Shown here: positions 17,551 to 52,841 of the stretch, in pieces
Numbering within the stretch: the first letter of the stretch is position 1
Layout of the letters: each line of letters starts with the position of its first letter
Assembly (NCBI GenBank): GCA_018920345.1
Contig: JAHLMN010000005.1
Coordinates: forward strand, 12,255-76,254
Source of the DNA: Candidatus Aenigmatarchaeota archaeon
GTDB lineage: Archaea; Aenigmatarchaeota; Aenigmatarchaeia; CG10238-14
Reading direction: 5' to 3'
Length of the DNA: 64,000 nt
The notes under the pieces: model-generated
The model's database searches: none
The model's input: only the letters and a program-made list of their open reading frames with translations
Told to the model about the DNA's origin: nothing
Made by a program: the position numbers and the translations under genes

Positions 17551-17940
17551 TTAAGCAAGTTTGTAATATTTCTTTCTGTTAATAACTTCTGCTCTAGCTT
17601 CTTTATTTCTTTCCATTTCTTTTAGATATTCATTACATCTAGTTCTTGATAATCCCACAATCTCAGCCAATTCTTCTGAAGTCATTTTTCCTTTTTTTCT
17701 TAATATCATTTTTATTGCTTCCTTTATCTTGTCTTTCTTTGTTATTGTTGTTGTTTCACTATCTAATGGTGTTTTTTCCAATAGTTGTTTTATTTCTTCT
17801 AGTTGTAAAGAGATTCTGTCGATTTTTTGGTTTAATTCTCTAACATCTTCCATTAACTTAAATATATGAGCATATTGCAAGTTTAGTTGTTTATGGATTT
17901 CATCATTAGAATCCTTTTCTTGTGTTAGCAATTTTATCAT
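17551..17940 (-). CDS. Coiled-coil protein with C-terminal winged-helix HTH (putative transcription regulator)
   Basis: N-terminal heptad-rich segment (LNQKIDRISLQLEEIKQLLEK), then KMTSEELAEIVGLSRTRCNEYLKEMERNKEARAEVINRKKYYKL. Confidence 0.6.
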   Translation of the reverse strand: MIKLLTQEKDSNDEIHKQLNLQYAHIFKLMEDVRELNQKIDRISLQLEEIKQLLEKTPLDSETTTITKKDKIKEAIKMILRKKGKMTSEELAEIVGLSRTRCNEYLKEMERNKEARAEVINRKKYYKLA

Positions 17941-17949
17941 ATTCTATTT

Positions 17950-18170
17950 ATTTGTTTTGTCGAAATAAAATGCTTTTCTATTCGACACTTTTCTATTCGA
18001 CTTTTTGAAAAAACTTAGAATCGACAAAATAGACAATGCATTTTAAAAAGGCTTTTTTCTCCTTGTTTTTTTGCCTATCAAACATAGTTTTTGTTTCGAT
18101 TAAAAAGAAAATGTGTCGATTCGACTTTTCTTTTCTATATATTAGAAGGAGTTATATCAATCGACAATAT
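17950..18170. promoter_or_regulatory. Divergent intergenic region with at least 8 TCGAC-containing motifs, including a 15-bp tandem direct repeat CTTTTCTATTCGAC(A/T)
   Basis: gtcgaa (17960), cttttctattcgaca (17973-17987), cttttctattcgact (17988-18002), aatcgacaaaatagacaat (18019-18037), tttcgatt (18094), tgtcgattcgac (18113-18124), aatcgacaatattgtt (18159-18174). The pentamer is GC-rich in an AT-rich genome, so the enrichment is strong. Confidence 0.5.
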
Positions 18171-18211
18171 TGTTATACAATATTGGCCAATCTAAGAAGG
18201 AGGATATCCTC

Positions 18212-19069
18212 GTGAAAGAAGAAATATTGCAACTTTTGTCTAAACATCCAGAAGGTTTGACAATAACTTCTATAGCCGAAAAACTAGGGATACATAGACA
18301 TACTGCCACAAAATATGTTAAAGATCTTATCTTATCTGGGGAGATAAATGAGAGAAATGTCGGTATGGCAAAACTTTGTTTTTTGAATAAATACAAGTCT
18401 AGGCATATAATAGGTGAAAAAGCTGAAACAGGGCAGGCACAAATATTTGCTTTAGCAATTCTCTTATTCTTTATACCTGTTTTAATAATAGCTCAGAATT
18501 TTGGCACAAATATTACAGGTAGTTTTAGTGAAGTAATCGACACAACATTTATCACTTCTTCTAGCGATATCATAACAACAACGACAATTTCTGAATTTGT
18601 CGAAAATTCGACAGAATTAGTAGTCCAACAAGAGCCTTTATTAGTTGAAAATTACTCTGAGAATTCGACAGATTTTAATGAAGATATAGCTACTTCAGAG
18701 CATCAAAATATATCATCTTTTATCAATGAAACTAATGAAACAACCTCTAATAATTCATTAACAGAAATACAAGATGAAATTTTACAGCCAACTGAAACAA
18801 TAGAAAAAATAGAACTCGATTTAAACATTCCTAAAAAGATAAATAGAGGTGAAGAATTTCAAGCAACAGCTTCAGTATTAAACAAGTTTTCTTCGCAAAA
18901 AAATGTAAAAATAAAATGGATGCTTCCTCCTGGTTTTTCCATAATAAGAGGTAGTGAAGAAACTTTTTGTGAGCTAGAATCAGAGCAAGGATGCATTTCT
19001 GAAATAATGATAAAAGCTGAAACAGAGTTGGGGTTGCACGAGATAAAGGTGAAAGCAACTTATGAGTAA
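18212..19069 (+). CDS. Membrane-anchored winged-helix regulator (cytoplasmic wHTH, single TM, extracellular glycosylated domain); probable GTG start
   Basis: GTG at 18212 is preceded by AGGAGG 7 nt upstream and gives VKEEILQLLSKHPEGL..., parallel to the paralogue start. The tracked TTG/ATG start is 18170. TM is FALAILLFFIPVLIIA, followed by NxT-rich and CARDB-like sequence. The stop overlaps the giant gene ATG by 8 nt. Confidence 0.7.
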   Translation: MKEEILQLLSKHPEGLTITSIAEKLGIHRHTATKYVKDLILSGEINERNVGMAKLCFLNKYKSRHIIGEKAETGQAQIFALAILLFFIPVLIIAQNFGTNITGSFSEVIDTTFITSSSDIITTTTISEFVENSTELVVQQEPLLVENYSENSTDFNEDIATSEHQNISSFINETNETTSNNSLTEIQDEILQPTETIEKIELDLNIPKKINRGEEFQATASVLNKFSSQKNVKIKWMLPPGFSIIRGSEETFCELESEQGCISEIMIKAETELGLHEIKVKATYE

Positions 19070-22000
19070 TCAAAAATTCAACAAAAGCCAAGTTTCTCTT
19101 GCCTTAGCTATGCCTATATTCTTCTTACCTATTCTAGTAATTCTTCCTCTATATCTTGCTTTATCTTTACTTGTGCTATATATAGCCTTCATAAACTTAA
19201 GTAAAAAATCTGAAACAGGTCAAAGCCAGTTGTTAGCTTCTTTGATTGTCTTGTTAATAACCTCTACTTTAGTAATAGCAACCAATTCCACAATTACAAA
19301 TAATACTATCACAGGAATGTTCACAGAAGTCATGCCAGAAGAGATTGAAAAAACAGCTCAAATAGAAGTGTGGGCAAATACATTTATTGAAACTTCTGAA
19401 GAAAACAATCTTATAAAAGCTAGATTATTAATGGATAATGGTTCTTTTGTTAGCGGACAAGAAATTTTATCATATTTTAATGATCAAGTTCAAAATATTC
19501 AAATCACAGATAATGATGGTTATGCATACTTTGATAAAAACATAACTAAATTAGAATATAAAGGAAACCAAAGTTTATATTTGAACCCCAGTTTTATTGA
19601 AATAAATTATACTCAGACTTTAACTAGACAAGATTTCTTAACAGTTTTTACTGACAAACAGTTTTATGAAAGTAATGAGACAGTAAATGTTTTCGGTTAT
19701 GTTTCAATAAATGGCTCAGTAGAAGTTGAGATAATAGTTGAAAAAGACAGTCAAGTATACAAAACACAAACAATATCTGCTGAAAACGGTTCATATAATT
19801 ATAATTTTATTGTTGATTTTACCGAGCAAGGTGTTTATACAATAAAAGTAAGATCAATAGGTTTGATAAATACAACAGCATTTGAATATAGGTTGCCAAA
19901 GAAACTAAGAATAGAGGCTACTGCTTTTGCAGAAAATATAGGAAAGACAAAATTAAAGTCAATAATTGTTAACGGAAGCGTTTTTTCAGGAGATACAAAA
20001 ATACCAGCCTTAATAAAAGTAAAAATTTACAATGTTAATGGAGAATTGGTATTGCAGAGTCAAAAGCAAATTGTAAATAATTTCTTTTTCAATTTTACTC
20101 ACTTGCCGAAAACATATGGCAAATATTATGCTGAGATAAATGCTGAAACTGAGTTAGGCAATGTAAGCGAAACAATTTATTTTGATGTTTTAAAGCATTT
20201 AGTACTAAAGCCTTTAATAAAACAAGAAAAATTCAATTATGAGCTAGGAGAAAAAATAAGATTCCAAGTAGATGCTGTTGATGAAGATGGAAATATCTAT
20301 TCAGATGTAAATGTTTCTGCTTTTGTCGTTGATCCTGATGGCAATGTAACAGAAGCAAATGTTATAGCAGATGAAACTTTACCAGGAAGATTTTATGTTG
20401 AGTTAGATACTGAAAGAGAGTTTAGGCCAGGCGTGCACAAGCTAAAAGTTCGACTAAACTATATTAGTCCAAACCCAGGTGAGGTTGTTGTTGAGGAGGA
20501 AGTGGAATTTGCTGTTGGTTTGATTAATGTTAATACAGATAAAAGTATTTATTTACCAGGAGATAAAGCAAAGATAACAATTGGAGTTTTAAATAATGAA
20601 GGAAAAAGGGCTTATGATGCAACTGTTATTATGAATATAATAACCCCATCAGGGGAAATTTTTACATACAATAGTTATAATGGAGATTTTTCAACAGACG
20701 AAATTGACGGTAGTTTAGCTTTGCTTTATGATGTAAATGAAACTGGCAATTATTCGATAGATGTTTTGGCATATGGTTCAAATTTTTCAGTTAATTACCA
20801 GACATTTTTTGAAACAAGAAATTATGTAGATTTTGATATACAGAGAAAGGTAAAAACACTTATAGACATAGGACATCCAAATACAGCTGAAATAAAAATC
20901 AAATCCAATGTTAATGCAAACAATGTTACATTGATAGAAAAATTACCTAATAGTTTTTTAGAAATAACAGCATATGGAGCTAGAATAGAAAGAAAGGAAA
21001 ACGAAACTTGGATTATATGGAGTTTTAATAAATTAAATGAAAATGATGAAAAAACATTAAAATATAGCTTCACAACCCCTGATGTTAACCCAGCAATTTA
21101 TTTAGCAGGCCCATTAACAGTTTATTATAATGATTCATTTGTTTTTGAAGAATCAAAACCTTGGACATTTATTGTAGTTGATGTTGTCTATTATTTCTTT
21201 AAATTCATGCCTTATTACTATAGAACTAACAATGTAACTGATTCTGTTCAGCATATAGTTTTTAACAGCTTTGATGAATATAGAGATCCCGTTATTATGT
21301 GTAGAAACCACGAAAATTATTCTTTGAATGTTCTATTAACAGATGAAGCAGATGATGATAATGGAATAATTCAACAATGGGAACTACAAATTTATGATGG
21401 TTCATGGAAAGCAATAACAACAAATGGTGTAGCAGGATTTTATATAATGTCGGGAGAAACTAATCCTGTTTCAGGTAGTGGTGTCGGTACAACAGATACA
21501 TGTACATCAAACTTTGGTGTAGCAGGTGGTGATAAATGTGAATGGGGTGAACATTTCAGATGGAACATAACAATTAATAAAACAGCACCTTTAGGTTTAA
21601 CGAAAATAAGAGTTTTGCCAAAAACAAGAACGCAAGGTCCGATGTTCAATACAAATGAATTTTATGCTTATATAATAGATTGTCAAGATATTAATCTTGT
21701 AAGACCAATAAAAATATTTGGTCCATCAGGTGAGCCAATAGACAAAATATCGAGAGGCCATATAGCAAAAATTGTAATTCCATTAGCAAATTATAACTCA
21801 TCTTTAAAAAAGGCTAACATAAGTATAGATATAAAAGATTCTACTGGAAACTCTGTTGATTGGTTTATTGAGGAAGGAAAAGTACAAACAGTATCTATAC
21901 CAGGAACTTTAACAAGACCAAATTGGAGTGAGAAAATAGTTGTATACACAGTATATGTACCTGATGAAGTACAAGCAACAACATACAGTATTTATGTAAA

Positions 22001-25000
22001 TATAACCTCAGATCAAGTAGTTGTTCAACATGCAAAAACTTTTACTGTGTATACAGATGAAGGTGGAACATCAAACGATATTGTTTTGTTTACAAGTACA
22101 CCAAGAAAATTAGGTGCAAATTGTGAGGATACAGGAGGTCAAACAACAGGTTGTGGTACAGGTCACGCATCTGTTTGTGCAGACGGAGATGGTCAACCTT
22201 GTTATAAAAATTTCAGAGAAATTTATGTATGCAATTATGGTGATTATAATCTTACAGTAAATATAACAGATTTTACCGCCGGCTCAAATGTATATTTTAC
22301 AACAGAGACAGATGGGCCTATGGCTGTTCCCCAACCTGATTATAATTCAACAGGTGAAGTTAGATGGTATAATGTTAAAATAAATACATCTTCTTGCTTC
22401 ATGGCAGAAATTCCATATAGACCGACAGACGATACTGGTGAAGAAACTTTTATTTTACAAGCCGAATGGATAGATCCTGTTACAGGAGAGTCACAAATGG
22501 TAACAAATAAACATATTTCATTAATATCTGCAACTACTGGAACACAATCTCCAACTATAACTACAATTCTTAACAGAACAACAGTGTATCCAAATGAGCA
22601 ATTACCTTTAAGAGTTATTGCAAAACTTGGAGGAAGTGAAGGTTTTGCAGCAATCGATGGTGCAGCAACACACACTGTTGTTCATTATGTTGAATTATAT
22701 ATACCTCCAGGATTTGAAAGGCCAACAAACTTTAGAGTTGTGGATAATAATGGTGCAACTATTAGAGCAACATCACCAGATCCAGGATATCCAATAGGTT
22801 CTCCGGAAGAAGGTTGGGTCGTTAAATTTTCTCCATATTCAATTGGCGGTACAGTGATAAGATTTGCAGCTGCAGCAACACAGTCTGTTGGAAATATAAA
22901 CCATTATGTGGATTTCGTAACAACTGTTTTACCTGAAAATAATATAACTCCAGGTGGAAAAGTTTTTTATACAACCTATGTAGGTTGGATGAGACAAAAC
23001 AAAGATTACCTTTTCAAAACTGATAGAAACGTGTTAAGTGTTTTATCACCATTTATAAAAACTGTTAGATATTACAATACAACAATCAATAATGAAGAAA
23101 AAGGATTTCCTTCTTCAAATATGTGTCAGCCATTTTCTGTAAAGCTTCAAGTTTTTAACAAAGGAAATTTGCCAGCAACAAATTTCAATGTAACAGAAAA
23201 CAAATATAATCATAGTGTTACACACTGGAATGATTTGCAATTTTCAAATTTCAACCCCTCTGCAAATGTTTACAGCAGTAACGGCATAATTTGGGGAAAC
23301 AATAACATCAATTTTATACCAACTGGAAAGGATAATTCATTGAATTATACTTATATAATAACAGTACCTTATCAAACAAATGGAACATTTGTTTTCAAAG
23401 CTTTGACAAGAAATATGACATATATCTTCTATGACAAAAATTATACATCATTAATTTCATGTGGAGCATCATTAATTGTAAGTGAACCAATAATTAAAAA
23501 AGGTGAAATAACAAACCCACCAATTTATGCTGGTGACATTTTCAATATTTCTTCGACAATTTATAATGATGGCCCCGGAAATGCAAGCAATGTTATAGCT
23601 ATAATCAATTATACAGCTAATTTTGATGTTAGAAACTTTACTAATCACAATAGCAATATCACATATTTAGGAAATATTCAAAGCAAAGAATCAAAAGTTG
23701 CTCACATAGATTATACTTATACTGTTAATACTACAGGTGTATTACCAGGTACATATACATTTTGCATAATAGCGAATGCAACAGAAAATGCAACAAAGGT
23801 TGCTGCTTGTAAAGATGTAACAATACAAGCTCCACCAGCAACAATAGAATTAGAAAATCCACTAATTATAAGTAAAGAAACAGGCAGCTCAAGCGGTTCA
23901 TGGGGTTACAATTTTACTTTCAATATAAGCGTAAGAGTAAGCAATTCAGACACAGATGTTTCTATTTGCTCTTATTTCAGCAAAACAGGAAACGAGCCAT
24001 GGATACAAGTTGGCGAATGCCAAAACTATCCAGCTCCAGGCCAATCTATAGGTCAATGGCAAAACTTTACATATGAATTTGATCCTAGTTGCAATGACAT
24101 AGGTCAAATAGTTTTTGTAAAATTCAACGCAACCAATAATGCAGGCACAAGCAATTCAACGCAAACAACATTTTCAATAACAAAAGATAAAATTGCATTT
24201 GAAAACTTAATTGGTAATAATACAGAAACAAGAAGAGGTAAAACAGCAACTCTGCTTGCGATTAGAACTAGAGATGCAAACGGCACACTTGTGACAAACT
24301 TACCATTAACATTTTTCGTCACATTAGATGGCACCATTTATGATTCTGGTTATTCAACAACAACAAATGCTTCTGCTTATGCCAATTATTATTTCCAAGC
24401 ATCATGCTCGCCAAAATACCAAGTTGGTTTGCAAAAAGTGAAAATTGTTTTAGCTAATAACGAATGCTATCAAGACAACAACACAGAAAGTTATTATAAT
24501 ATTTATACTAATGTTACAGGTGATATAATTTTATCTTTTGTAAGGCCTGACGGCTCTGTGAACTATACACAAGAGCAAGAAATTCCATTTTTAGGAGCAG
24601 TCACAGATGATTGTAACGATCCTATAACAGCTACAATAAAATATTTCATCAATCAATCTTCATCCAGCATAGAATGTGAAGACATTAGTCAAGTTGGTTC
24701 CAATGCATTTACTTGTGATTTACCAACAACAATAAACACACCAATGGGTTGGTATAACACGAGCATGTATGCCAATAAATTGCAACATTACAATAATTAT
24801 ACAAATAATTTAGGTAACCCAGGATTGTTCTATTTATTCCCAATCAAAAAATTATTACAACCGTCTGCTTATCCAACAACAGAAGGTTGGGGTTATCCAA
24901 ATTGGAATTTCTCAATAAATGTGAGCAGCGGAGATTCTGAAAATGTTTTGTTAGCTAGTCTTTATATGGCTCAATATTGGCCTCCAACCTATCCTTGCCC

Positions 25001-49000: not shown

Positions 49001-52000
49001 AGATGGAACTACAAACAACGCTACTATGATATTGCAAGCATCAGGTAATGATGATGTCTACAACATAACATTCTCCTGTCTTGATGGTGTAGCTTGTCAA
49101 GACTTTAATGTTTCATTCTATCCAACATTCATAAACAGAATTAATCTAACTGATACAGATTTAGTAAACATTTCAGTTTCAGTGCCAAAACAATATATGA
49201 CAGGAAGATATAATGGAACAATACTAGTAAATGCAACAAACTTTTCCATGGTCGTGCCTCTATATGTAATAGTCCCAATGAACATTTCTTGGTCTCAAAC
49301 ACCTTTAGAGATTAGCAAGACAGTTTTAGGCGATACAAAAGGTGTATTTGGTGAAATAGAATTGCAAAACACAGGCAATGCACCTGTAATTCTAGAAATT
49401 CTCAAATCAGGAAATATTAGCAACTATATATCTTTATCTGAGAGCAGCATAACAATACCAATAGGTCAAACATATTTAATAAAAATAAACTATACAGTTC
49501 CTGTCATAAATCAAGAAAGCAACTTTACAGGTGAAATAATTATAAGAAATACAACAGCTGACCAACAAAAACAAACATCTGTTTCTCTATATGTATTGCC
49601 ATACTATGTAAACATAACAAAACCAACCGAAGTTGAACCTATTGTAAACATAGCATTTGGAGATGTAGTAACATCTTATGTCAATGTAACATATAGTCAA
49701 ACAATAACAGAAAATGTAACATTCTATTTAAGAATTGGAAACGAATCATTCTCACAAGCAATAGTGGTTGATTCATCTCAATTCTTACCTGACATGCAAT
49801 TATGGCAAATAAACTTCACTGCACCTTTATTACCTGAAAACAGAGCTTATGATTTAAATGTAACAGCTTACTATTCAACAAAGAATGTTACAAGAAGTGA
49901 TATAGAATATAAAGCAATAAACTATAGAGATTCTATACCACCAAATATAACATTAATAACGCCACTCAAAGTTCCAGCTGGTTATATAGCTATAATAGAT
50001 GCACTAATATATGAAGAAGGCAATCTAAAGAATGTTTCTGGTATAATAACATATCCAGATAATAGAACAGAGTATGTTAATTTTGCAAGATTAAAGAGAA
50101 CAAACAACACATATTATTATCAACACAATATAACTAATACAACTTTGCTTGGCGTTTACACAATAAATGCAACAACTTGTGACTTTTCAGGTAATTGTGC
50201 TAATGCCTCAGCAGAATTTAGCATATATCCAGCTGCATTATTCCATGGTTATTCAAAAGATTATGAAGCAGCTTCTGAGCCAGTACAATTTGTTAACTTT
50301 AGCTTATATCAACCTGGAGTAGAATTGCTTTTATTCAACATTACACCTAACATGCAAACAGGTTATTATTCTGCTTTAATAGATGCAAGATCATATGACT
50401 TGCAAGCTTCCATATTCAATTCTACTGTTTTAGCCAGAGATGTTGAAATTATACAAGATGTCTTCAATCCAATAATATTTGGTGATATACCATCAGAAAA
50501 AATAAGTCTTGGTGCATTAACAGGTTTGTATGTAGAATCTATATTGAATACAACTAACACAAGCATTAAGATAGATTATTCACCTTATATTAGCAAGGAA
50601 ATATGTAAGATGAATAATGATTGTAGACCAGCATTATTCTTTGAAGAACATCTTTCATTATTTAGATGCAACGCTTGGACAAGAAAGATTGGTTGCTCAG
50701 GTGGTTGGACAAGGCTAGATACAAAAATAAATACTACATTACACTTTGCTGAAGTTGAAGTTATAGGCAATATTTCAGGTGCTTATGCATTAGCTCCATA
50801 TATTTGTGGCGATGGCATATGTGATCATGGTTATGGAGAGTCACCGTTCACATGTCCAAGAGATTGTGAATTACCAAGGCCAGTACCTGTTCCACCAGCA
50901 GCAGGAGGTGGGGGTGCAGGTGGAGGCGGTGGTGGAGGTGCTGCAGGAGGAAGAGAAGTAAGCATATCTGTACCAGGATTGCCTTATTCAATAAAATCAA
51001 CTTTGTTATTCATCACAATAAAGCCAGGTGAGCAAGAAATACACTCTATTGAAATATCAAATAATGAAGACAAAGAGATAGAAGGCCAACTAAAAGTAGA
51101 AGGATTTGCTTGGGAAATGATAATGCTTGAAGAGCCAGTGTTTAAAGTGGCACCAAAAACTACCAAAGTAATAAAAGTTAAAGTCTTTGCCCTACCAACA
51201 ACTCAGCCTGGTATATATACAGCTGATCTAGTCACAACAATTAATGGCGAACAGCATAGAACACCAATAACAATAAAAGTTGAATATGGTCCAGAGCCAC
51301 TATTAGACGTAAAGATAGAAGCATTATCCAAATCAGTGAGACCAGGAGAAGAGGCAAAATTCCAAGTTACAGTGCTAAATATGGGTCAGACCGCGACAGT
51401 AGAAGATATAGTATTGAATTATACATTAAGGAATTTAAGAACAAACGAGATGATTTCTGTTGGGCAAGAAACAATAGCTGTAGAAGATGTTAATACATTC
51501 ATCAAATCCTTCCATATACCAGAAGATACACCAACTGATAGATATGTCATAGAAGTTACAGCAAGCTATTGGTATGGCAAAAAACAAGCTAGAGCAGCTG
51601 CAGCATTTGATGTTGTTTACTTGCCAGCACCATTGATAATATTGAAAGCTCTTGCTACAAGCTGGATCACATATTTAGTAGTCCTTATAATTGCGCCAGC
51701 TGCTGCAGTTGGCTATAGAGCTTACAGATATTATACAACTATGAAGAAGATTAAAGCCAAATACATATTCCCTGTTGATATAAAGAAGTTACCACAACCA
51801 GGACCAAACACAATATTAGTTGGTAAAGTTGCTGAAACAGATATAAATGCTTATACAGATGTCAACAAGCTTGTCATGCATAGCTTAGCAGCAGGAGGTA
51901 CTGGATCTGGTAAAACAGTATCGGCTATGGTTACAGCAGAAGAATTGCTAAAGAGAGATATACCAATAATTGTCTTTGACCCAACAGCTCAATGGACAGG

Positions 52001-52841
52001 CTTCATAAGGCCTTGTAAAGATGAAGAAATGTTTAAGCTATATCCACAATTTGGCCTGAAGAGAGAGGATGCAAGAGGATTCAAGACAAACATAATAATA
52101 GTTAAAGATCCTAACATGAAGCTAAACTTGAAAGAATATATGAAACCGGGTGAAATAACAGTATTTGTTATGAACAAACTTTCCATGGCTGAAATAGATA
52201 CACTAATAAGAGCATCTATACAAGAGATATTCGACATGAACTTGCCAGAATCAAAACAATTAAAGCTTTTAATGGTTTACGATGAAGTTCACAGATTATT
52301 GCCTAAATATGGAGGTAAAGGTGGTTTCGTAGCTCTAGAAAGAGGTGCAAGAGAATTCAGAAAGTGGGGTGTTGGCTTATATATGATATCACAAGTACTT
52401 ATGGACTTTAGAGGAGCAATTAGAGCTAACATTGGTACAGAAATACAAATGAGAACAAAGTACGAAGGTGATATCAATAGAGTAAAGACAAAGTACGGCG
52501 CTGATTATGCTGCTAGGATAACAAAACTTACTACTGGTACTGGATTGGTGCAAAATCCAGAATACAATGAAGGTAAACCATGGTTCGTTGCATTTAGACC
52601 ACTATTGCATGATACACACAGACTAACAGATGAAGAATTAGCTGAATATGATGCAACACAACAAAAGATTAAAGAAGCTGATGATAGAATTGCAAAACTA
52701 AAGGCAAGAAAGATAGATACTTATGATGTTGAGCTAGAGCTTAACATAGCTAAAGATAAGATGAAACAAGGAATGTTTAAGATGGCTCAAACATATCTAG
52801 AATCTGTTGATAGTAGACTAAAGGCATTAGAGAAGAGATAA
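19062..52841 (+). CDS. Giant (11,259 aa) membrane-anchored, heavily N-glycosylatable surface protein with C-terminal cytoplasmic FtsK/HerA-superfamily ATPase domain
   Basis: Single uninterrupted ORF. N-terminal TM segments. Extracellular tandem modules carry conserved GGWGE, QKWK, CYKD and WYN[IV]T motifs. CARDB-like domains near the C-terminus. TM at ATSWITYLVVLIIAPAAAVGY, followed by positively charged residues. Walker A GGTGSGKT, DEVH box, and a RGAREFRKWGVGLYMISQ motif typical of COG0433/DUF87 ATPases. Confidence 0.85.
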   Translation: MSNQKFNKSQVSLALAMPIFFLPILVILPLYLALSLLVLYIAFINLSKKSETGQSQLLASLIVLLITSTLVIATNSTITNNTITGMFTEVMPEEIEKTAQIEVWANTFIETSEENNLIKARLLMDNGSFVSGQEILSYFNDQVQNIQITDNDGYAYFDKNITKLEYKGNQSLYLNPSFIEINYTQTLTRQDFLTVFTDKQFYESNETVNVFGYVSINGSVEVEIIVEKDSQVYKTQTISAENGSYNYNFIVDFTEQGVYTIKVRSIGLINTTAFEYRLPKKLRIEATAFAENIGKTKLKSIIVNGSVFSGDTKIPALIKVKIYNVNGELVLQSQKQIVNNFFFNFTHLPKTYGKYYAEINAETELGNVSETIYFDVLKHLVLKPLIKQEKFNYELGEKIRFQVDAVDEDGNIYSDVNVSAFVVDPDGNVTEANVIADETLPGRFYVELDTEREFRPGVHKLKVRLNYISPNPGEVVVEEEVEFAVGLINVNTDKSIYLPGDKAKITIGVLNNEGKRAYDATVIMNIITPSGEIFTYNSYNGDFSTDEIDGSLALLYDVNETGNYSIDVLAYGSNFSVNYQTFFETRNYVDFDIQRKVKTLIDIGHPNTAEIKIKSNVNANNVTLIEKLPNSFLEITAYGARIERKENETWIIWSFNKLNENDEKTLKYSFTTPDVNPAIYLAGPLTVYYNDSFVFEESKPWTFIVVDVVYYFFKFMPYYYRTNNVTDSVQHIVFNSFDEYRDPVIMCRNHENYSLNVLLTDEADDDNGIIQQWELQIYDGSWKAITTNGVAGFYIMSGETNPVSGSGVGTTDTCTSNFGVAGGDKCEWGEHFRWNITINKTAPLGLTKIRVLPKTRTQGPMFNTNEFYAYIIDCQDINLVRPIKIFGPSGEPIDKISRGHIAKIVIPLANYNSSLKKANISIDIKDSTGNSVDWFIEEGKVQTVSIPGTLTRPNWSEKIVVYTVYVPDEVQATTYSIYVNITSDQVVVQHAKTFTVYTDEGGTSNDIVLFTSTPRKLGANCEDTGGQTTGCGTGHASVCADGDGQPCYKNFREIYVCNYGDYNLTVNITDFTAGSNVYFTTETDGPMAVPQPDYNSTGEVRWYNVKINTSSCFMAEIPYRPTDDTGEETFILQAEWIDPVTGESQMVTNKHISLISATTGTQSPTITTILNRTTVYPNEQLPLRVIAKLGGSEGFAAIDGAATHTVVHYVELYIPPGFERPTNFRVVDNNGATIRATSPDPGYPIGSPEEGWVVKFSPYSIGGTVIRFAAAATQSVGNINHYVDFVTTVLPENNITPGGKVFYTTYVGWMRQNKDYLFKTDRNVLSVLSPFIKTVRYYNTTINNEEKGFPSSNMCQPFSVKLQVFNKGNLPATNFNVTENKYNHSVTHWNDLQFSNFNPSANVYSSNGIIWGNNNINFIPTGKDNSLNYTYIITVPYQTNGTFVFKALTRNMTYIFYDKNYTSLISCGASLIVSEPIIKKGEITNPPIYAGDIFNISSTIYNDGPGNASNVIAIINYTANFDVRNFTNHNSNITYLGNIQSKESKVAHIDYTYTVNTTGVLPGTYTFCIIANATENATKVAACKDVTIQAPPATIELENPLIISKETGSSSGSWGYNFTFNISVRVSNSDTDVSICSYFSKTGNEPWIQVGECQNYPAPGQSIGQWQNFTYEFDPSCNDIGQIVFVKFNATNNAGTSNSTQTTFSITKDKIAFENLIGNNTETRRGKTATLLAIRTRDANGTLVTNLPLTFFVTLDGTIYDSGYSTTTNASAYANYYFQASCSPKYQVGLQKVKIVLANNECYQDNNTESYYNIYTNVTGDIILSFVRPDGSVNYTQEQEIPFLGAVTDDCNDPITATIKYFINQSSSSIECEDISQVGSNAFTCDLPTTINTPMGWYNTSMYANKLQHYNNYTNNLGNPGLFYLFPIKKLLQPSAYPTTEGWGYPNWNFSINVSSGDSENVLLASLYMAQYWPPTYPCPSNICLNQTPLECANCIGSVKYWYRNFTAYEQGIWYYQFKLDGTQTDQVISVTVEKDDTNITYGGEGNLTTVIKDVQPQYLSARVYDLDRQTYNVTSPSATVTFKLYNSNYPDGYIILGSALTNETGYARFLFNITNCYGFYEGTQLWTAEINSSEPYYKPSQMGNGTITIQLPGCQPQIDVEQILTPKEVFSGRNFTVNATITSWVASAENVYATIYLPAGWQVDQAIKSLGTVNVGEHVRISWNVNATTDGVENITVYVNSTNANNDVIYSNKIISYKPITSSIIETLPKIIQPSQSQIFSFLCEAGDYRIANITTNWNGTNTKAKLYSYNGTTWIDIGERYLNETKIEFIPILQHQINSNETGYCLIKIQNIGDNYINISNIQFSAYYNETIKIQDINTTVFGNQITGIEPNQKLNVTVKVANSGQGQTGILWLNITGPTGLVNYSSQNINIPNGISFFNINDIDTSTWQEGTYSIKAFVDYGNKTERIELLELRQIQARIHAYNWMCNSSTEDLSVDIYHPFNDDIQYNISLQVPSGWQYSPVYQLINASTKGNYTANFTITSGNTAEVALINASIVYNYPQEKSLQVTKQIISNSIAILEVIREMPKYVGNDKVFDAQLVIHNKGCAPTTGTTTVSEQISAGWIPANPFIKKNEYGDNIELISTQVDLIKNKVTWNLGQIGVNEYAVLTYQIKAPVDTAREGQFTWNVSWDGKSLRERDPYNVQTANYSNEAHLEFDLEALQQEAYPWVEPRSAQLNRNYEYALKVTNVGDKNATDWTITLYVPEACDVKAIKNSGSWNSTSRKISWSLPEIETYESTYLNFTLNCTIEGKKILIAEALKDERQQIAFTNDTSISCYGQECLIEQPFTFTKPVNARYETLSALNMLVNYDWSGFRNTIGEGKITFTDDLGNYYTLWQNYSHDSTSSSLWQNYTILENEKYVSPTRKIKIEGYADATDDALTNVTINKINYVWNVGKYFQEPQELFIKTKIYTYKPLLENATLYINGNSSRIIGGWGETFNFSVMLRDRFGRDVTVYAWHKKGAGEYSLIGSWTCYSCLEWNQANFSYDYIGSDISSWEFKFNATNADGTSTLNGYPYTVEADDINVDFAYPTYNMTVNRSGTSNFVILVYDRDNQTSPAYLMPGETDEGKGRIYISKFGSNTTFDLSPSLSANSTGHVVRQMSNIIPQWCLVSDYYLGQNYWKGGIEGAVTYKNNATGIYPFMLVGDLSNSYLTQPNNKNFTRGSTINLDGVIKDDCNDVKTDSARFGAEYILTHESTEYRITASLTSASFEIPLDAPLGWYNITMISFSEGIDNDKYWNGTYFKQNAFFLASIPQLNNVQVQPYPKGSWETKPFNFSVYITNIDNETVFARLWFKNQTDDWFLQNTTTCSNCDNYYFLTQHNFTCYNIGEWKAQFNATSATSFSNLTTTITFNITKSDISILHSSGNNTIVNRSDDEPANTRELSVQIFNLVTNKNETAISTSDVYTWVYDGSTYIEQLETANTSHYYFNFNPSCSYQVGKQKWKVNTTSSCYSTNTSEEFYIDIYGSLNNTLILPDGSTNYTQNDQILLLGQITDDCSQPVLNANVRFKLQSGSNIYYCPSSGYITNTTGNYYSCVWDSSGKPGGFYNITMESNKAYHNNGTDYLQNAFFLITPVQLISPQVSYPGDGSWGELHNFTVFVTHYAPANVCLLERTPTTQWQVTECKYVENPQNTFVNFTRYYTCDEYQASALRYFVFNASEPGVAATYSNTTEQSHVLVKNDITITYVYGNESFVNRNGANTTKFILFVNDTDRNQPAYYLLGASVKPQVWFRVHNATSYLVDGYNSTNTSGYVEYNFNPSCSYEAGKFKWQGYTSSDSCYKDYSAEEYNVTIIGDLVANVTYPDGITYFRNLELYIPINGTVIDECNLHYNENATVNFTAISVGFGTEYQCLPVDNAGTGKYNCTLNATTIEEGWYNVRMNATNVQYYNNATILASNKFRVIQQWVPPILENATVLPEQDWGWGENFTFIVNVSDLNAQDINVSLWLSPDNQTWQYISSQICYNCGSKKQLTFYYKGFNCDAIPKYYFKFNASDQYNKTEIAGIEFPITKNDVEVRYVDFAVGNNSVVNRNEYTMLRLRLYDTDNKSYLPANVNGRIFVTTNYVDFDLGNANITDEQGYLSYYFQPNCNYLAGVQKWKGGTYEDACYKDSNITDYLQTTIIGWLNNTIIEPNGDVYYSNQNVTIVTNVSDECFLPITDASVVFMLNHSSNYYQCLDVSSNNGWYNCTWNISNNPSGWYSIRMNSTRQYYNNATTYSEQSFFHQVDPQLKAAFVTPNSTWWGSTFAFKVNVTDDDDYVNVSLWIRCVGGNITPNGCSPDSEFSLANTTNVYDYINNQVMLTKKFADGVNIGNYEWFINASDNYGGFANTGIYTFNVTKRPVYLVYVSGNETNVSRIGANTTLVRVRLFRVGADGGNDEPLNGLSVNFWFTQDGSTWSNTPRSNTTGQSGPGYAEFAFNPSCPATDGGIDFFKTGRQWWNATFSSNTEPGIYYYANTSTNFTLYINSTLNVKIIKPDGEYYPVGTNIYTLANVSDECEYVSQASVQLSVSGESISCSNNTGDANGQYSCILLTSVLGTGDYNEEATATKNYYDSAYTFKPNAFKIRYSPQLSNQQVTPTTEGWGYNFTFNVSAQDSDPGDYLNISLWKSYGGEWIKVEQKNCDSCLSQQTLFFHPIFSCEDYINGPVVRFKFNATDSYGLKAETPNITLTFEKDDVLFTILQGSGATINRSDENDNNAYNFVVIVNDTDRRNVTVNSSEEPDQTITGYFVFSKEPISPTFDSGHSNTTVNGYLSYYFNPDCNYKTGLQYWKVNISGNTCYKDTELTEYQTFNIIGQLKTNLYLPQKYSEFNVTDNITFKFNTYSDCYLQGAEDNGNISVDTSSLRLNETFYCTPIQQELAGNYNCTWDSTGKPQGNYTVNITVEKLNYNFNTSYYIDWFYLKNRMPNVTEMNVTPYSSGWGDTYTYRAEIFDEENDTVTCSLYTNTTGQWVYKGSNTINTPGNCSITVNDFSCDEQGQASFMFEINDTFTRFNTSVVLGPIIAKDNVSVTHILGNNSYVNRSGDQYTTFILNITDTTKKVKAQNANTTIWITTDGSNYQSWFDLKSNETGHVIFKFNPNCSSPTYSLGKQYWLGGVRNDVCYNEANTTENFTVNILGDLQLFINQPKGEKYLRTNYPDGSYVIIKANISDDCLLPITNAQVNFTSEKGLTKKYCNPIYNEGDSNYNCTIDTTTYQAGAWNLTMNASLINYNYNTTTYVYQPNQKGYWVETKPVIEPYLPITPIPAGDGGWGEYWLFRTNVTDEDLDTLTLRLWINSTSEPETWTFKASNNSVSGINQTVFFNVTFTSTFANKHFKFKYNVSENVIDFIQNINETGNGTFYLDKDDTFVQYIEGNNTVVNRSAPISVSNFTMTVRLWDADKYDTTIGNRRIRFWMTTDNAENWVVVSPAALRTNGTGEQPSSAGWGYASNISHPGCNFAVGPQKWKAEIYNEDPYKSSNSSISFFTIIASQLQSKVISPKNKTILKGIEDLVIKGNVSDDCGLVANASVTITVIDSSGTVRGVCKPNDPFNPTLDESNGIYNCTFPASQIYSEDWPTGWYNVTINATKQYYNDSVTYVEQSSFRISTAPELSNAIVTSEEGSNVGGWGELWQFSVDIIDPDNDNSTVYLWLNLTGDWVLYNQTYWRNGIDPSTITFYNTFNCTGLADLGTKFFKFNASDNYGYKDEITNSFTLQPDDTEVYVTATNGQSINREGPNELELSAWILDIDRDYIPVGEGVNTRIRITTNASDPNSWSDYETQTNSSGYTKRIIDPDCTYSVGIQTWRAEVYNDVCYKTAYDQDTITVLGSIYNSLLAPDQYSSYPTGTPVAINYSTTSDCTNVRSDETPYINVTPTIELSLTGANWEQCSPITNNYGIYNCTWNSSYKQPGYWDIKLTSNKQYYNTKQTVYQDWFEIYNANPTNTSTPTVTPTIGGWGTVYNYSVQLLDTDGDPITCVLYTSTDDGNTWVKQGQQLIGSVGTCSFLVKNFNCNATYTDVGSDNWFKFEITDGYHTPFNISSEPGPIIEKNNITITLFAGNNSVVNRTGNDFTILRVFVNDTTKGWPVGNATSGNATIKFNITYNGISYLLEGSNTTYRGNVTYRFNPSCSYYVGDQKWIAYKQGEIGGDQCYNDASSEVFNLTITGNLINVIQKPSGEKYNRGEVNVTIRGNVTTDCPSLDGLISTALVNYTIIHVGTQNTYSCTEGTFTNEGNGYYNCSFDTTSKPTQWYNIRMNSSGFQYYTPNTTTKTNAFFISTIPNLTNPTTTPLSGGWGAPHTFSVYIKDDDNDVNNVSLWIRCVGGGCNPTNFWLAKTTLITASSSPQQVQFTKTDFTPADIGNWEYFFNASDGLNSANTSINTFTITKDTINLTLVAGNEAVINRSTTETATLRVKVFDVDRNVALSPGEPGTGYFYVTTDPNNPNSYVIDKTLTSIEGGSYLTDIFPTLARCTYGVGPQKWKVEFGSDAYQATNSSEFLINITTHEIILQIIGPNNQTFRRARDPIPLVAQANDDCGGLIGATTFFKAYPEYSWTTCNSPTDNLNGTYNCTLYSPETAGLTYYNLEFNATKQYYNSSSNAYKQDAFVLVTNPEIIAYTPVTSDTVYPNGWSEVWNFTASVRDIDQNVYNFEKLNISLWIDFGSGYQLVNSTICSATDNPNCASWKTITFLFRNFTCGDIGIKSYKWNVTDVWNYTNETTATLTVDKSDVIIEFVDQPSYIYRADTSTGKFVYRVYDTDKGQYVTNTSTNTMMWITTDGSTYDNGRFVQINSSGYAVYEFDPDCNYRYGMQKWIAGVYEDACYKNKNLSFTPQFEVRVQLQNNLLVPVYNSIYNVTDMILVRFNTTTECSAEGLIGNATTTISLQSPLGVWETCTPINNEYNGWYNCTWNSTHKKEGYWSIMLNSTKTPYFAQNSTVYSNWFWLENLNSSYDNITLTPTIGGWSRLYNYTIDIDDPEREDINCSLFISKDNQLTWEYKGSYLLQNGLGTCFVTVHDFTCEDIGKEIFYKWQVVNGEPANAYNTSAYKGPNITESLVQVQLSQGNNTFINRTFQTKPLIVRIFDIENQSYVYNANTSFWITYDYSNYLLVNKTQTDYNGYALYSFTPSCIYQVGTQNWKAGIEDDKCYSDVNSTDYLVHVNGTLFNTILQPSGQEFLRGDNITIKANVSSDCQNEVMNESVYLELTTVKDLQSLQCTPVLNENTGVYNCTFNTSSYAARWWNITAYSNKIGYNSNYTTKINAFWVETKPELNNPTVMPLGDGGWGETWIFTVNFTDEDLDPNTVRLWVNKSSGWSNANTTIVSGINQTITFVQVNLFTSSDYINSLNNLTKFYFRTQDEIIPTENDTAETPQINITLQKDDVYINHTYGNNTVVNRSGGSLFFRVRMWDTDRVPWDDLPSGSKGRFWFTKDGNTFVNTIDKFANSSGEIAHLQALDCSFQVGPQKWFAELYGNTPYKDTNSSIFNWTIVTVGLTANITDPDGIPRLRGIDDIVLRARVTDDCGGVPNATVIFHVPDENYDCTNVYYEGNGYYNCTIPAATTASWNTGWHDVTVDVSKQYYNGTFVEKTNAFYLATKPEILLTPPPAAIPEQDGGWGEDWLFTAITQDTDGDSYNVSLWFNLTGNWQLVDSVIVSGPQQVDFPGKTFSCDDIGERQFMFKVTDVWGYENNYTSPFTIYKDDTIIDYVAGAGTQVNREYDDIEPIIVQISDFDRDGIYVGSNVNGSFFITTDGSNYIQAAANKTDTSSLLSYYFNPNCTFNVGIQKWKAGTYNDRCYKDNIPDYGFTIEITGQLKNNLIKPNYGEIIAVGNLVNTTFQVLDECGFAVNDSNGKIEFGSPTNSFEQCLPITDQGNSIYNCTWNTSFHMGGYWDIRLNSSKQYYYSNSTLLNDWIYLLNTPPAYENLSVTPTSEGWGRNFSFSVDVDDLQYDNVTCTLFVSTDNGLTWKNKGNYTVYGGRGKCIVNVSDFDCGDIGNDNRYLFQLYDGTNLINTTNNTNLIIEPNDVEIIYISGNNTFVNRSGNQYTTFVVQVHDLDANTYPKDVNMSVFVTVDKTNYLINSTPRSDINGMLYYNFNPSCTFNELGMQYWLIGADNNVCYKSVNTTQNYTVNIIGDILNRLTTPSGQDFLRGEDNITFTIETSDDCAAPVDNANINLTLISEYGNTYSCEPIDEFGGGIYYCTKNTSGMRARWYNVSVNTSKEFFNTNVSLHVRPFFIKTMPIVQNLTITPAQDWGWGEKYIFTANVTDEDLDTVYVNLYYTPVGFDDWVQINSTTITSPFNTTVTLTYQGFTCSDIDYEQEFEFTVLDNRSYLVNSTVREPWKKKFNLTKDDVQIIYEAGNGEEVWRNGTDSRRLSIRVYDTDKGSYPGSGYNGMFWVTTNYAQFDIGKATTTNSSSFLNYYFTSEAPQPECDYLTGVQKWKAGIYDDACYKDTNSTNYTITIKSELRPQIDYPYGQGFIRPNPVPFIARIYDDCGLVSGATTTWTAYNGPNEYGCTNKTEANGWYNCTWPSANRPYGYYNLQFAATKNYYAPNNTYRANAYFLGTLPQLSDPKILNNHYLGGWGETYEFSVKLTDFDLNTNNVSVWKSFDAQNWTLVASQNVSNAVNQQIIFPVKFNCSDMGFNYFYFTSVDQFGYSTNTTILNFTLEADNVTLSIGLINTTVRRIGEQQALLNFTIYDDDYGRYAPNALGNINITLDYSNYSYVFNCTTNERGQCYIYYNPNCSSLAGVQSWIGKTVDSCYQIKETSPTSLAVIGQLNTSILNPYNGQILNRNQNASLNTIILDECFNEVSGATALWYNETWSNIASGYNTNWIIPTYYELGPETIYLNVSKTYYDPNSNKTNVYIYGWSGISILNPLDSSFYLAGTSVNVKCKVIDLNTTMPLQSYMVKFYKNGTLMDTQPTNSDGEAFWLWQTMTENYGWYNITCSIDDNTVMYYNASIPRATSLVEIKRPLIIQSIDKSSPFVYRNDSFVPNNVNITVRIKDALIGDAENANVTFYNSTGLIDWCLTNSTGQCFITFNPADTITPNIYTIYVNATKVGLQDSVTNTTTIEVKGKLFVNISSPLNNSFWARTDNIALIASVYDEAGQETTATVRWFNETAQVASGENSNWYLIEQTTGNHTLTVNATRDYYDKGEQTIIITISSLSDVQWIYPNDGSIMPYPDAFNTLCRVIDSSTGTPIPNYMVQFWYNYTPGYIFNGTLYTNASGIATNTWQPPQKGQVMFRCNITNDYEKLYTANIKEAFALITIRDIRPPQINNISIQPYAGLEANLNYTNISAVITDDIAVYEAWAQITMPNSTILNLTMPNSGNTYSVLYLPPIGGNYSVRIYARDYPPESNSNNTFAGTFYVNGKTNGIITQPDNIQINGITWTSSESAELTINFTNIGPATAYAVNISFISDPLNSLILNETIHECGTVYNQSSCIFGLLVTVPAATPPSAIKLISNATWRNPDLTKSFTTEDTNFVVISNKIIDILQDNITAIAPHDKLTDLPDITVQSLGNDMITDISITTTGGNISTLCPDCELIIVPNEWGLLEAGASFVSDLRINVPRAQPPGTYWTYIKAASVETSPDLMPLYITVPLNTSWSRSPENFGLILAPPNTSGYIGEITTTSFANIRLILNAYKLQNGSQLFNIYPSAFSLDNGAVRNITVTYNIPSSFISSQGLYYAQIIITNETAMPNEYRTEFWLNVTDIPPIISNVSFVPTEFEMIYESTNISAIIRDNFAVSSAFLNITLPNSTSFTQPMNNTGSYYSTIYTSNIHGYHNISICAIDTQGLQGCTEPTPILVSGETTIRNVFNISKAVVPNITLSNGNEFAITFTTNNTGLSRAFNISVNITTPSNISSNINSTFYSLLLKNQSSSQVVEFNVSAATRPGIYKINFTNNWTNLDQTISSSLDQLEVEVLSNPRLNTTENITVYVPDGTTNNATMILQASGNDDVYNITFSCLDGVACQDFNVSFYPTFINRINLTDTDLVNISVSVPKQYMTGRYNGTILVNATNFSMVVPLYVIVPMNISWSQTPLEISKTVLGDTKGVFGEIELQNTGNAPVILEILKSGNISNYISLSESSITIPIGQTYLIKINYTVPVINQESNFTGEIIIRNTTADQQKQTSVSLYVLPYYVNITKPTEVEPIVNIAFGDVVTSYVNVTYSQTITENVTFYLRIGNESFSQAIVVDSSQFLPDMQLWQINFTAPLLPENRAYDLNVTAYYSTKNVTRSDIEYKAINYRDSIPPNITLITPLKVPAGYIAIIDALIYEEGNLKNVSGIITYPDNRTEYVNFARLKRTNNTYYYQHNITNTTLLGVYTINATTCDFSGNCANASAEFSIYPAALFHGYSKDYEAASEPVQFVNFSLYQPGVELLLFNITPNMQTGYYSALIDARSYDLQASIFNSTVLARDVEIIQDVFNPIIFGDIPSEKISLGALTGLYVESILNTTNTSIKIDYSPYISKEICKMNNDCRPALFFEEHLSLFRCNAWTRKIGCSGGWTRLDTKINTTLHFAEVEVIGNISGAYALAPYICGDGICDHGYGESPFTCPRDCELPRPVPVPPAAGGGGAGGGGGGGAAGGREVSISVPGLPYSIKSTLLFITIKPGEQEIHSIEISNNEDKEIEGQLKVEGFAWEMIMLEEPVFKVAPKTTKVIKVKVFALPTTQPGIYTADLVTTINGEQHRTPITIKVEYGPEPLLDVKIEALSKSVRPGEEAKFQVTVLNMGQTATVEDIVLNYTLRNLRTNEMISVGQETIAVEDVNTFIKSFHIPEDTPTDRYVIEVTASYWYGKKQARAAAAFDVVYLPAPLIILKALATSWITYLVVLIIAPAAAVGYRAYRYYTTMKKIKAKYIFPVDIKKLPQPGPNTILVGKVAETDINAYTDVNKLVMHSLAAGGTGSGKTVSAMVTAEELLKRDIPIIVFDPTAQWTGFIRPCKDEEMFKLYPQFGLKREDARGFKTNIIIVKDPNMKLNLKEYMKPGEITVFVMNKLSMAEIDTLIRASIQEIFDMNLPESKQLKLLMVYDEVHRLLPKYGGKGGFVALERGAREFRKWGVGLYMISQVLMDFRGAIRANIGTEIQMRTKYEGDINRVKTKYGADYAARITKLTTGTGLVQNPEYNEGKPWFVAFRPLLHDTHRLTDEELAEYDATQQKIKEADDRIAKLKARKIDTYDVELELNIAKDKMKQGMFKMAQTYLESVDSRLKALEKR
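24400..45450 (+). repeat. Intragenic array of about 20 diverged tandem ~1-kb (~330-aa) coding modules
   Basis: The conserved QKWK-type motif recurs at about nt 29580, 30565, 31545, 32562, 33558, 34527, 35580, 36597, 37590, 38617, 39612, 40580, 41562, 42522, 43488, 44478 and 45422 (period 944-1053 nt). The GGWGE-type motif recurs with the same period. Repeats are protein-level, not identical DNA. Confidence 0.7.
51760..52838 (+). other. Cytoplasmic P-loop ATPase domain (FtsK/HerA superfamily, COG0433/DUF87-like) of the giant protein
   Basis: Walker A gca gga ggt act gga tct ggt aaa aca at 51891-51917. Walker B / DEAH-like VYDEVH at 52275-52292. ALERGAREFRKWGVGLYMISQVLMDFRGAIRANIGTEIQMR resembles the HerA/DUF87 arginine-finger region. 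Confidence 0.65.

Follow-up and report, generated by a model that had tools for sequence, protein, structure and literature searches.

The closest described counterparts of the giant gene examined here are the SPEARE proteins of Nanohaloarchaeota, which reach 8,553 amino acids, are mostly extracytoplasmic, cross the membrane by a transmembrane (TM) segment close to the C-terminus and have a cytoplasmic part that is conserved (Hamm et al., 2019; PMC6642349). This cytoplasmic part was labelled restriction-enzyme-like, with similar portions in Woese-, Aenigm- and Micrarchaeota and Altiarchaeales; all SPEARE ectodomains are said to contain at least one laminin-G domain, and the SPEARE protein from Ca. 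Nanohaloarchaeum antarcticus was detected by proteomics, apparently in a processed form (PMC6642349). The published examples include NAR1_1133 of the latter organism (5,998 amino acids), a protein of Ca. Nanopetramus SG9 (8,553 amino acids) and SVXNc_0300 of Ca. Nanohalococcus occultus (9,409 amino acids) (PMC6642349; PMC10266531). Their re-analysed architecture comprises a signal peptide, about 75 Ig-like domains, a TM segment, a ‘VirB4/TraG-like’ ATPase and a coiled coil; the 9,409-residue example was reported as the largest protein of any cultivated archaeon, a VirB4/TraG-family ATPase gene adjoins the nanohaloarchaeal giant gene and a ‘straw’ resembling a type IV secretion system was proposed (La Cono et al., 2023; PMC10266531). 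Halomucin of Haloquadratum walsbyi, of about 9,000 amino acids, has also been cited as the largest archaeal protein (PMC6642349), and archaeal proteins of more than 10,000 amino acids are few and mostly from Asgard archaea (West-Roberts et al., 2023; bioRxiv 10.1101/2023.11.21.568195). Here, we analyse a stretch of 64,000 nucleotides from a Candidatus Aenigmatarchaeota archaeon (positions 12,255 to 76,254 of contig JAHLMN010000005.1, assembly GCA_018920345.1; hereafter the window), in which a single gene encodes a predicted protein of 11,259 amino acids. We found no account of this giant protein in Aenigmatarchaeota in the literature on DUF87/HerA in DPANN archaea and on giant proteins of Aenigmatarchaeota. 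Compared by architecture and ATPase family with the SPEARE proteins as described in these publications, it appears to be their outsized Aenigmatarchaeota counterpart.

The gene occupies positions 19062..52841 of the window, on the plus strand (as do all of the features below unless stated otherwise). Its open reading frame (ORF) of 33.8 kb comprises 11,259 codons and a stop, as established by ORF listing and an independent translation, so that the single stop-free frame covering 53% of the window (52.8%) announced in the original prediction is confirmed. It starts with an ATG, preceded 12 nucleotides upstream by an in-frame stop (19050), and its sole stop is the terminal one, compared with 651–1,135 stops in each of the five other frames; given the base composition of the ORF, the chance of 11,259 codons without a stop is about 10^-403. 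The predicted protein has a mass of 1,264.5 kDa before glycosylation and an isoelectric point of 4.66. The genome of the organism totals 815,730 bp, is 95.5% complete and is assembled into 27 contigs, of which C2 holds the window; it devotes 4.1% of its length to this ORF, which is far longer than any other, the runners-up being of 2,665 and 2,213 amino acids; the former lies on the same contig around 91198, some 15 kb past the end of the window. The archaeal AlaRS equivalog model scores above its cut-off on the AlaRS of the window, the nearest named relatives are metagenome-assembled genomes (MAGs) of Ca. Aenigmatarchaeota, and the sequence is present in nine public sequencing runs, all of them hot-spring metagenomes and none an RNA run. 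The organism is a hot-spring Ca. Aenigmatarchaeota (DPANN) archaeon, and its earlier assignment to an archaeon with a DPANN-sized genome (0.82 Mb) holds.

A C-terminal TM segment had been noted previously. A TM helix is indeed present at amino acids ~10,861–10,883 (51642..51710), as judged by hydropathy and by a long helix in the AlphaFold2 model, and is followed by a K/R-rich stretch; however, it is no simple tail anchor, as it lies 376 residues from the end of the protein and precedes an ATPase that had been overlooked. This cytoplasmic region of 376 residues (amino acids 10,884–11,259; 51711..52838) consists of a P-loop ATPase of the HerA/FtsK superfamily and a helical/coiled-coil tail according to Pfam, the PDB, AlphaFold2 and Foldseek, with the last ~70 residues forming long helices (model helices 336–404). 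The Walker A motif GGTGSGKT is found at amino acid 10,945 (51894–51917) and the Walker B motif LLMVYDE at amino acid 11,069 (52266–52286). The Walker residues are invariant across 38 homologues, and the ATPase is predicted to be catalytically intact. It is also the best conserved part of the family, with an omega of 0.02 and 63–65% identity across families.

The Pfam matches to the ATPase are DUF87 (the HerA central domain; 3e-10) and HerA_C (2e-8), both above their cut-offs. T4SS-DNA_transf also passes (27.5 bits for a cut-off of 20.1), with its best stretch limited to about 46 residues around the P-loop, while TrwB_AAD_bind and AAA_10 remain below their cut-offs, CagE_TrbE_VirB gives no match and the matches to FtsK_SpoIIIE and ResIII are weak. 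Matches to the NCBIfam models CedD, HerA, TraB, TraD and HerA_antiphage are weak as well, and the nearest solved sequences in the PDB are HerA proteins. The AlphaFold2 model of the TM helix and the ATPase has a predicted local distance difference test (pLDDT) score of 91.5; searched with Foldseek, it retrieves HerA hexameric translocases at the top 30 ranks, followed by the FtsK motor and the coupling protein TcpA. By the tests applied here, the ATPase is thus nearer to HerA than to VirB4/VirD4, all of these belonging to the FtsK–HerA superfamily. The same genome carries, on contig C14 (14261–16471), a separate canonical HerA-like gene of 736 amino acids with a barrel-like N-terminal region; a stretch of undetermined bases falls within its frame (the contig contains 112 N).

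The giant ATPase shares with the HerA of Sulfolobus solfataricus (PDB entry 4D2I) the RecA-like core with its Walker A and B motifs, and HerA provides its best matches in both sequence and fold. It differs from HerA by the lack of a HAS-barrel, the AlphaFold2 model passing from the TM helix through two short strands directly to the core, by the TM helix that precedes this core and by its fusion to a megadalton ectodomain. No NurA-like gene was found among its neighbours, in a search limited to the neighbourhood. A TM segment directly N-terminal to a cytoplasmic ring-type motor is instead a property of FtsK/SpoIIIE, Streptomyces TraB, the coupling proteins VirD4/TraG/TcpA and the crenarchaeal Ced ATPases. 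Yet, the matches to these membrane translocases cover mainly the P-loop region, the giant has neither an all-alpha nor a gamma domain nor associated secretion-channel genes, and none of these translocases bears a giant extracellular domain. The solved structures closest to the ATPase by sequence and fold include anti-phage HerA complexes which, together with the weak HerA_antiphage matches, bring to mind a defence system at the cell surface, where the ATPase would work as in anti-phage HerA systems and the ectodomain would act as a barrier or decoy for viruses. We consider this very improbable: the genes adjoining the giant gene include no Sir2, DUF4297 or nuclease effector partner, the HAS-barrel typical of HerA is missing, fusion through the membrane to a giant ectodomain is without precedent among anti-phage HerA systems and the gene sits amid housekeeping genes in conserved synteny.

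We searched the ATPase domain exhaustively against 1.84 billion protein representatives. At E < 1e-30 it matches 370 clusters, nearly all of which place the domain at the C-terminus of proteins of 600–7,665 amino acids; in nearly all of these homologues, the N-terminus is hydrophobic and a TM helix immediately precedes the ATPase. On sequence grounds, the domain defines a DPANN-wide family consisting of an N-terminal anchor, a variable ectodomain, a TM helix and the ATPase. The named members, in a search spanning proteins of up to 5,000 amino acids, are annotated as ‘DUF87 domain-containing protein’ and come from Aenigmat-, Micr-, Nano-, Woese-, Pace-, Nanohalo-, Alti- and Parvarchaeota, with Nanohaloarchaeota proteins matching at 52–64% identity. 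The giant relatives were found by genome search. Within the phylum, 135 of the 301 genomes sampled contain the ATPase domain (48 of the 98 of high quality), and 14 of the 301 have an open frame of more than 10,000 amino acids in this family, the largest being 14,526. The statement that proteins of this size are very rare in archaea thus agrees with the published literature but is less apt within this phylum. Some relatives, for example G089, G098, G174, G198 and G234, show one or two in-frame stops in the ATPase match, which could correspond to pseudogenes, sequencing errors or split genes.

Counted over 245 homologues of up to 7,665 amino acids, conservation decays outward from the membrane. 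The membrane-proximal pair of β-sandwiches (amino acids 10,701–10,860; 51162..51641; weak MG2/NEW3 Pfam matches) is kept in 207 homologues, the Cys-rich motif and Pro/Gly-rich linker that precede it in the sequence (amino acids 10,561–10,700; 50742..51161) in 98 and the proximal stalk (amino acids 9300–10,560) in 104; the super-repeat of the ectodomain occurs in 97, in two to nine copies, and the distal 1,600 residues are matched by none. The ATPase, on the other hand, is kept even in members with an ectodomain of only ~250 amino acids.

Like the SPEARE proteins, the giant is encoded by a small DPANN genome, several percent of which is taken up by its gene, and combines an N-terminal signal or anchor, a huge tandem Ig-like ectodomain, a single TM helix near the C-terminus, a cytoplasmic P-loop ATPase and a C-terminal coiled coil. 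The weak ResIII match of its ATPase explains the ‘restriction enzyme’ label originally given to the SPEARE cytoplasmic part. A second member of the family in the same genome (contig C20, 4674–11306; 2,210 amino acids, ATPase 50% identical) has PQQ-like/carrageenase-type β-propellers, and the PQQ-like ones are those described for SVXNc_0300. The length of this paralogue is kept at ~2,200 amino acids in many related genomes; a homologue of the coiled-coil gene described below lies next downstream with a four-nucleotide overlap, and upstream is a gene for a secreted protein of 664 amino acids that is anchored at its C-terminus and has a Pro/Gly linker resembling that of the giant. The giant differs from the SPEARE proteins in being larger than any published example, with relatives reaching 14,525 amino acids, in the construction of its ectodomain from a 325-residue three-domain super-repeat with a period-3 superstructure and in the presence of an overlapping upstream gene for a winged helix–turn–helix (wHTH)–TM protein, which is fused to the giant in some relatives.

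The sequence stems from a MAG and the protein contains internal repeats, which speaks for the possibility that collapsed, chimeric or mis-joined repeats mimic a single ORF; the original prediction had warned of error-prone tandem repeats. The DNA does not bear out this warning: Tandem Repeats Finder detects a single array in the ORF, a 37-nucleotide tandem of Gly codons at 50904–50940, and the longest exact repeat is 26 nucleotides. The 20 full super-repeat units of the protein share only 16–40% pairwise identity (median 27%), from which it follows that the copies are old. We further mapped Logan contigs of four runs from three studies onto the repeat core (27500–47499). These contigs are collinear with the core, ~99% identical to it and even in depth; in run X2, three of them (15.0, 6.1 and 16.3 kb) together span it from one end to the other. 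The sole length difference from the window is a 3-nucleotide in-frame deletion at 47449 (runs X1 and X2). One of the mapped runs may be the source of the assembly itself, and the support from contigs is to that extent not fully independent. Three apparent joints skipping 1.8–8.2 kb, each in a single contig with a shorter side of 20–21 nucleotides, were attributed to chance k-mer sharing among diverged repeats rather than to deletions. Many synonymous-looking single-nucleotide polymorphisms are common to several runs, pointing to strain variation of the giant gene in hot-spring populations.

The strongest evidence for a genuine gene comes from the comparison with relatives, searched for as the original prediction had recommended. 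The congener G002, a separately assembled MAG, has a collinear orthologue of 11,248 amino acids; the alignment extends over 11,239 positions at 76.8% identity and contains only 29 gap columns. The overall dN/dS is 0.127, every bin of 750 amino acids giving 0.09–0.19, for a dS of ~1.3. Orthologue lengths in other genomes of the order and class run from 9,000 to 14,525 amino acids. In other families of the order or class, intact and collinear orthologues occur in G040 (10,144 amino acids) and G036 (11,434 amino acids), and that of G039 is collinear and at least 12,990 amino acids long, reaching the contig end. Still longer ones, likewise intact and collinear, are found in G166 (14,236 amino acids; contig C1, 56732–99442) and G113 (14,525 amino acids; contig C3, 21543–65120). 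Their differences in size are chiefly differences in the number of super-repeats, from 17 to at least 27. The short DNA repeats, the divergence of the protein copies, the even depth of contigs in other runs, the purifying selection in a separately assembled congener and the intact orthologues of 10,000–14,500 amino acids in more distant genomes together leave an assembly artefact effectively refuted, and the ORF is best regarded, from these sequence comparisons, as a genuine, intact gene under purifying selection along its whole length.

The ectodomain, of ~10,780 amino acids and roughly 100 Ig/MG-like β-sandwich domains, is predicted to lie outside the cell. From the N-terminus, it begins with a distal or tip region (amino acids 80–1610; 19299..23891), in which Pfam and structure-atlas look-alikes indicate MG2, filamin-like and DUF11/CARDB-like β-sandwiches; amino acids 80–300 are the fastest-evolving part of the protein (46% identity, omega 0.30 relative to G002). 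Super-repeat copies 1–2 (amino acids 1611–2253; 23892..25820; iterated repeat hidden Markov model) are followed by a non-repeat DUF11/CARDB-like insert recognized by Pfam (amino acids 2254–2996; 25821..28049), which is collinear in G002, G036, G039 and G040, and then by 18 contiguous copies (amino acids 2997–8898; 28050..45755), supported by the repeat model, AlphaFold2 and Foldseek. The next section (amino acids 8899–10,560; 45756..50741) contains partial copies, which extend to about amino acid 9290, and the proximal stalk with its Big_7 and NEW3-like Pfam matches. Each super-repeat of ~325 amino acids comprises three β-sandwich domains, and each unit carries an even number of cysteines (four, six or eight). 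The mean identity between units is 0.32, 0.31 and 0.30 at lags of 3, 6 and 9, compared with 0.27 at other lags; these peaks imply that the array grew by duplication of three-unit blocks.

The AlphaFold2 prediction, a step also recommended at the outset, gave for one super-repeat unit (using the 20 units as the alignment) a model of three β-sandwiches with a pLDDT of 92.2, which Foldseek matches to the MG domains of complement C5/A2M and to the extender domains of RTX adhesins. The giant has MG domains in common with α2-macroglobulin and complement thioester proteins, but the thioester motif C[GLAS]EQ is absent from its whole sequence despite the MG2 domains. An Ig-like β-sandwich domain is ~4 nm long. 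With about 100 such domains, the fully extended stalk would measure ~0.3–0.45 µm.

The original prediction that nearly the whole protein is extracellular is well founded. N-x-S/T sequons number 513 in the ectodomain (4.76 per 100 residues compared with 1.76 expected, a 2.7-fold excess) and are absent from the cytoplasmic tail, cysteines number 180 and one, respectively, and the K+R content is 6.2% compared with 16.5%. These asymmetries support an outer ectodomain and a cytoplasmic tail; the ectodomain is probably heavily N-glycosylated and disulfide-bonded. The N-terminal hydrophobic segments announced previously were also found, in a membrane region (19095..19280; hydropathy) conserved in the G002 and G036 orthologues: a Pro-rich segment of 33 residues (amino acids 12–44) is joined through a short loop rich in K to a second hydrophobic helix (amino acids 57–73), the latter being the only one in the G040 orthologue. 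A later start omitting the first segment was rejected, as residue 46 is encoded by TTA, which is no start codon, and both G002 and G036 retain the segment. We also considered the ‘GQxQ + hydrophobic helix’ module as a class III (prepilin-type) signal. The archaeal consensus for such signals expects a charged residue at position −2. The residue found there is T or I, and the idea was dropped. An ‘ITG[RFM]’ motif after the first helix, present in the giant, the upstream gene and some orthologues, is not enriched when searched as a loose regular expression (24 compared with 20 in a control window, of 198).

The proposal that the protein is tethered at both ends gains support from relatives. The giants of G113 and G166 start with a cytoplasmic wHTH followed by one TM helix, which places both ends of the protein in the cytoplasm there, the ectodomain being a loop between the wHTH and the ATPase, and the N-terminal hydrophobic segment of these two relatives is a true anchor. 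By comparison, the window protein may likewise be anchored at both ends, with N-terminal cleavage possible. In the distant members P0055, P0067, P0088, P0090, P0116 and P0220, the N-terminal 40–60 residues before the first TM form a K/Y/G-rich cytoplasmic module with a motif of the type ‘YGPY..Y.SYR.NGKV’ and a weak, sub-threshold match to DUF6788.

With tandem Ig-like extenders hundreds of nanometres long and a distinct distal region, the giant resembles the RTX (MpIBP, LapA-type), SiiE and Ebh/Embp adhesins of bacteria. However, their copies are near-identical, whereas the repeats of the giant have a median identity of 27%; the giant is moreover archaeal, lacks the RTX/type I secretion signal and has its own TM anchors and a cytoplasmic motor ATPase. 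Halomucin is likewise archaeal, extracellular and very large, but its architecture is unrelated: it is secreted, mucin-like and sugar-binding, without a TM–ATPase module. A passive giant adhesin for surfaces or hosts, or a protective glycoprotein coat, whose ATPase would serve its own biogenesis, anchoring, turnover or clustering and move no cargo, would accord with an ectodomain composed entirely of adhesin-type β-sandwiches like those of RTX adhesin extender regions and with the fact that channel-forming or secretion components are not encoded nearby. We nevertheless hold it to be unlikely. Invariant Walker motifs, the lowest omega of the protein and the retention of the ATPase alongside ectodomains of ~250 residues argue that the motor, and not the stalk, is the core function.

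The giant gene belongs to a conserved cassette, in which it is preceded by a divergently transcribed wHTH gene and by a small gene that overlaps its start, and followed by a gene for a coiled-coil protein. The upstream gene (18170..19069) encodes 299 amino acids comprising a cytoplasmic wHTH recognized by Pfam, a TM helix, a Ser/Thr-rich linker and a β-sandwich; its stop overlaps the giant ATG by eight nucleotides, and the same overlap with a small upstream gene is found in G002, G036 and G040. Its TM module resembles that of the giant, amino acids 48–90 of the latter being paralogous to amino acids 85–130 of the upstream product. Moreover, a homologous wHTH–TM module forms the N-terminus of the giant itself in G113 and G166 (phmmer E of 1e-15); being fused there and split in the window, it links the upstream gene and the giant by fusion or splitting. 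The small TrmB-like wHTH gene (17551..17940, minus strand; Pfam) keeps its position in G002, G036, G040, G113 and G166. The downstream gene (52888..54291), beginning 46 nucleotides past the giant stop, encodes a coiled-coil protein of 467 amino acids with SHOCT-like motifs; the alignment shows it to be a conserved neighbour, with a homologue directly downstream of every orthologue examined (G002, G036, G039, G040, G113 and G166). A complex prediction for this protein and the ATPase tail gave a score of 0.00, which is evidence neither for nor against an interaction. In the class, 100 of 201 genomes match the wHTH–TM module (query 18170–18529 of the window), which heads frames of ~300, 839, 1,596, 2,224, 2,854, 3,670 and 14,526 amino acids; free-standing wHTH genes of 70–100 amino acids are also present. 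A membrane-tethered wHTH before an ectodomain seems to be a common design in this class.

This arrangement raises the possibility of a contact sensor, in which binding to or pulling by the host would be relayed through the tethered wHTH and the ATPase to switch gene expression. The eight-nucleotide overlap and the fusion in G113 and G166, the second, divergent wHTH gene as a conserved neighbour and the many ectodomain proteins of the class headed by wHTH–TM modules would all fit such a role. We think it improbable, however, given that the upstream genes of G036 and G040 have no wHTH, which is thus not obligatory, that no protease or cleavage site was identified and that HerA-type motors are not known as signal transducers.

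The interpretation that we lean towards, with some reservation, is a stalk-bearing ring motor, the tip of which binds the host while ATP is spent on moving a polymer across the symbiont membrane or on remodelling the contact. By analogy with HerA, FtsK and the coupling proteins, the ATPase domains would form a ring beneath the symbiont membrane. This ring would bundle several stalks into a fibre a few hundred nanometres long, whose fast-evolving distal tip would bind the envelope of the host cell. At the contact site, the motor would use ATP either to drive DNA or protein through the membrane of the symbiont or for remodelling the contact, with the coiled-coil protein and the wHTH–TM protein as possible cytoplasmic and membrane partners. 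The oligomeric state, the binding to a host and the nature and direction of the cargo are thus what we infer; a role at the surface in interaction with a host, put forward in the original prediction, is plausible and has already been proposed for the published relatives (PMC6642349; PMC10266531).

Several points weigh against a stalk-bearing ring motor. The conjectured ring would have to assemble from motors that are each attached to a single TM helix and carry a megadalton ectodomain. No enzyme domain or recognizable receptor-binding domain was found in any segment of the ectodomain by Pfam or structural look-alikes. In particular, whole-protein Pfam searches detected no laminin-G domain (Laminin_G_3 or related), unlike in the SPEARE proteins, and no protease or toxin-like domain; some other members of the family do carry laminin-G (PF13385). 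The downstream partner is a coiled-coil protein without an ATPase domain and not a VirB4/TraG-like ATPase as in Nanohaloarchaeota, and the immediate surroundings of the giant gene yielded no further secretion-system components. Finally, HerA-type ATPases also serve in DNA repair and anti-phage systems, so that other cargoes, and even another direction of action, are conceivable.

The genes flanking the cassette are housekeeping genes (IleRS, AlaRS, TyrRS, a THUMP protein, cytidylate kinase and Sua5). Two neighbouring tRNA genes lie downstream of the cassette (57972–58055 and 58099–58173), and positions 14830–15723 encode a secreted sequon-rich protein of 297 amino acids, with a paralogue on contig C12 (26443–27357; 78% identical) and a G002 orthologue (78%).

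DPANN archaea depend on physical contact with a host, and their contact machinery is almost unknown. A gene that takes up 4.1% of a 0.82 Mb genome and has stayed intact through purifying selection on 11,000 codons must hold a central place in the life of the organism. Our results take the SPEARE-type architecture beyond the halophilic Nanohaloarchaeota into the thermophilic Aenigmatarchaeota, where it is common, and carry its size range well above the published values of 9,409 (PMC10266531) and ~9,000 amino acids (PMC6642349). They also define parts that can be tested: an expressible TM–ATPase module, a coiled-coil partner and a wHTH–TM module that is split or fused according to the lineage, the fast-evolving tip being a natural candidate for host recognition. 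One may go further, in what we regard as a rather doubtful extension, and wonder whether these proteins represent an unrecognized archaeal apparatus for cell-to-cell transfer made essentially of one polypeptide, a HerA/FtsK-type motor ring equipped with its own host tether of several hundred nanometres. If so, it would pull a polymer such as DNA from the host or push one into it, as a DPANN-specific functional counterpart of the conjugation or competence machinery. In some lineages, the protein would have two cytoplasmic, DNA-related ends, an N-terminal wHTH and a C-terminal translocase, and its size, from two to 27 super-repeats and up to 14,500 amino acids, would be adjusted to how thick the host envelope is or to the contact distance.

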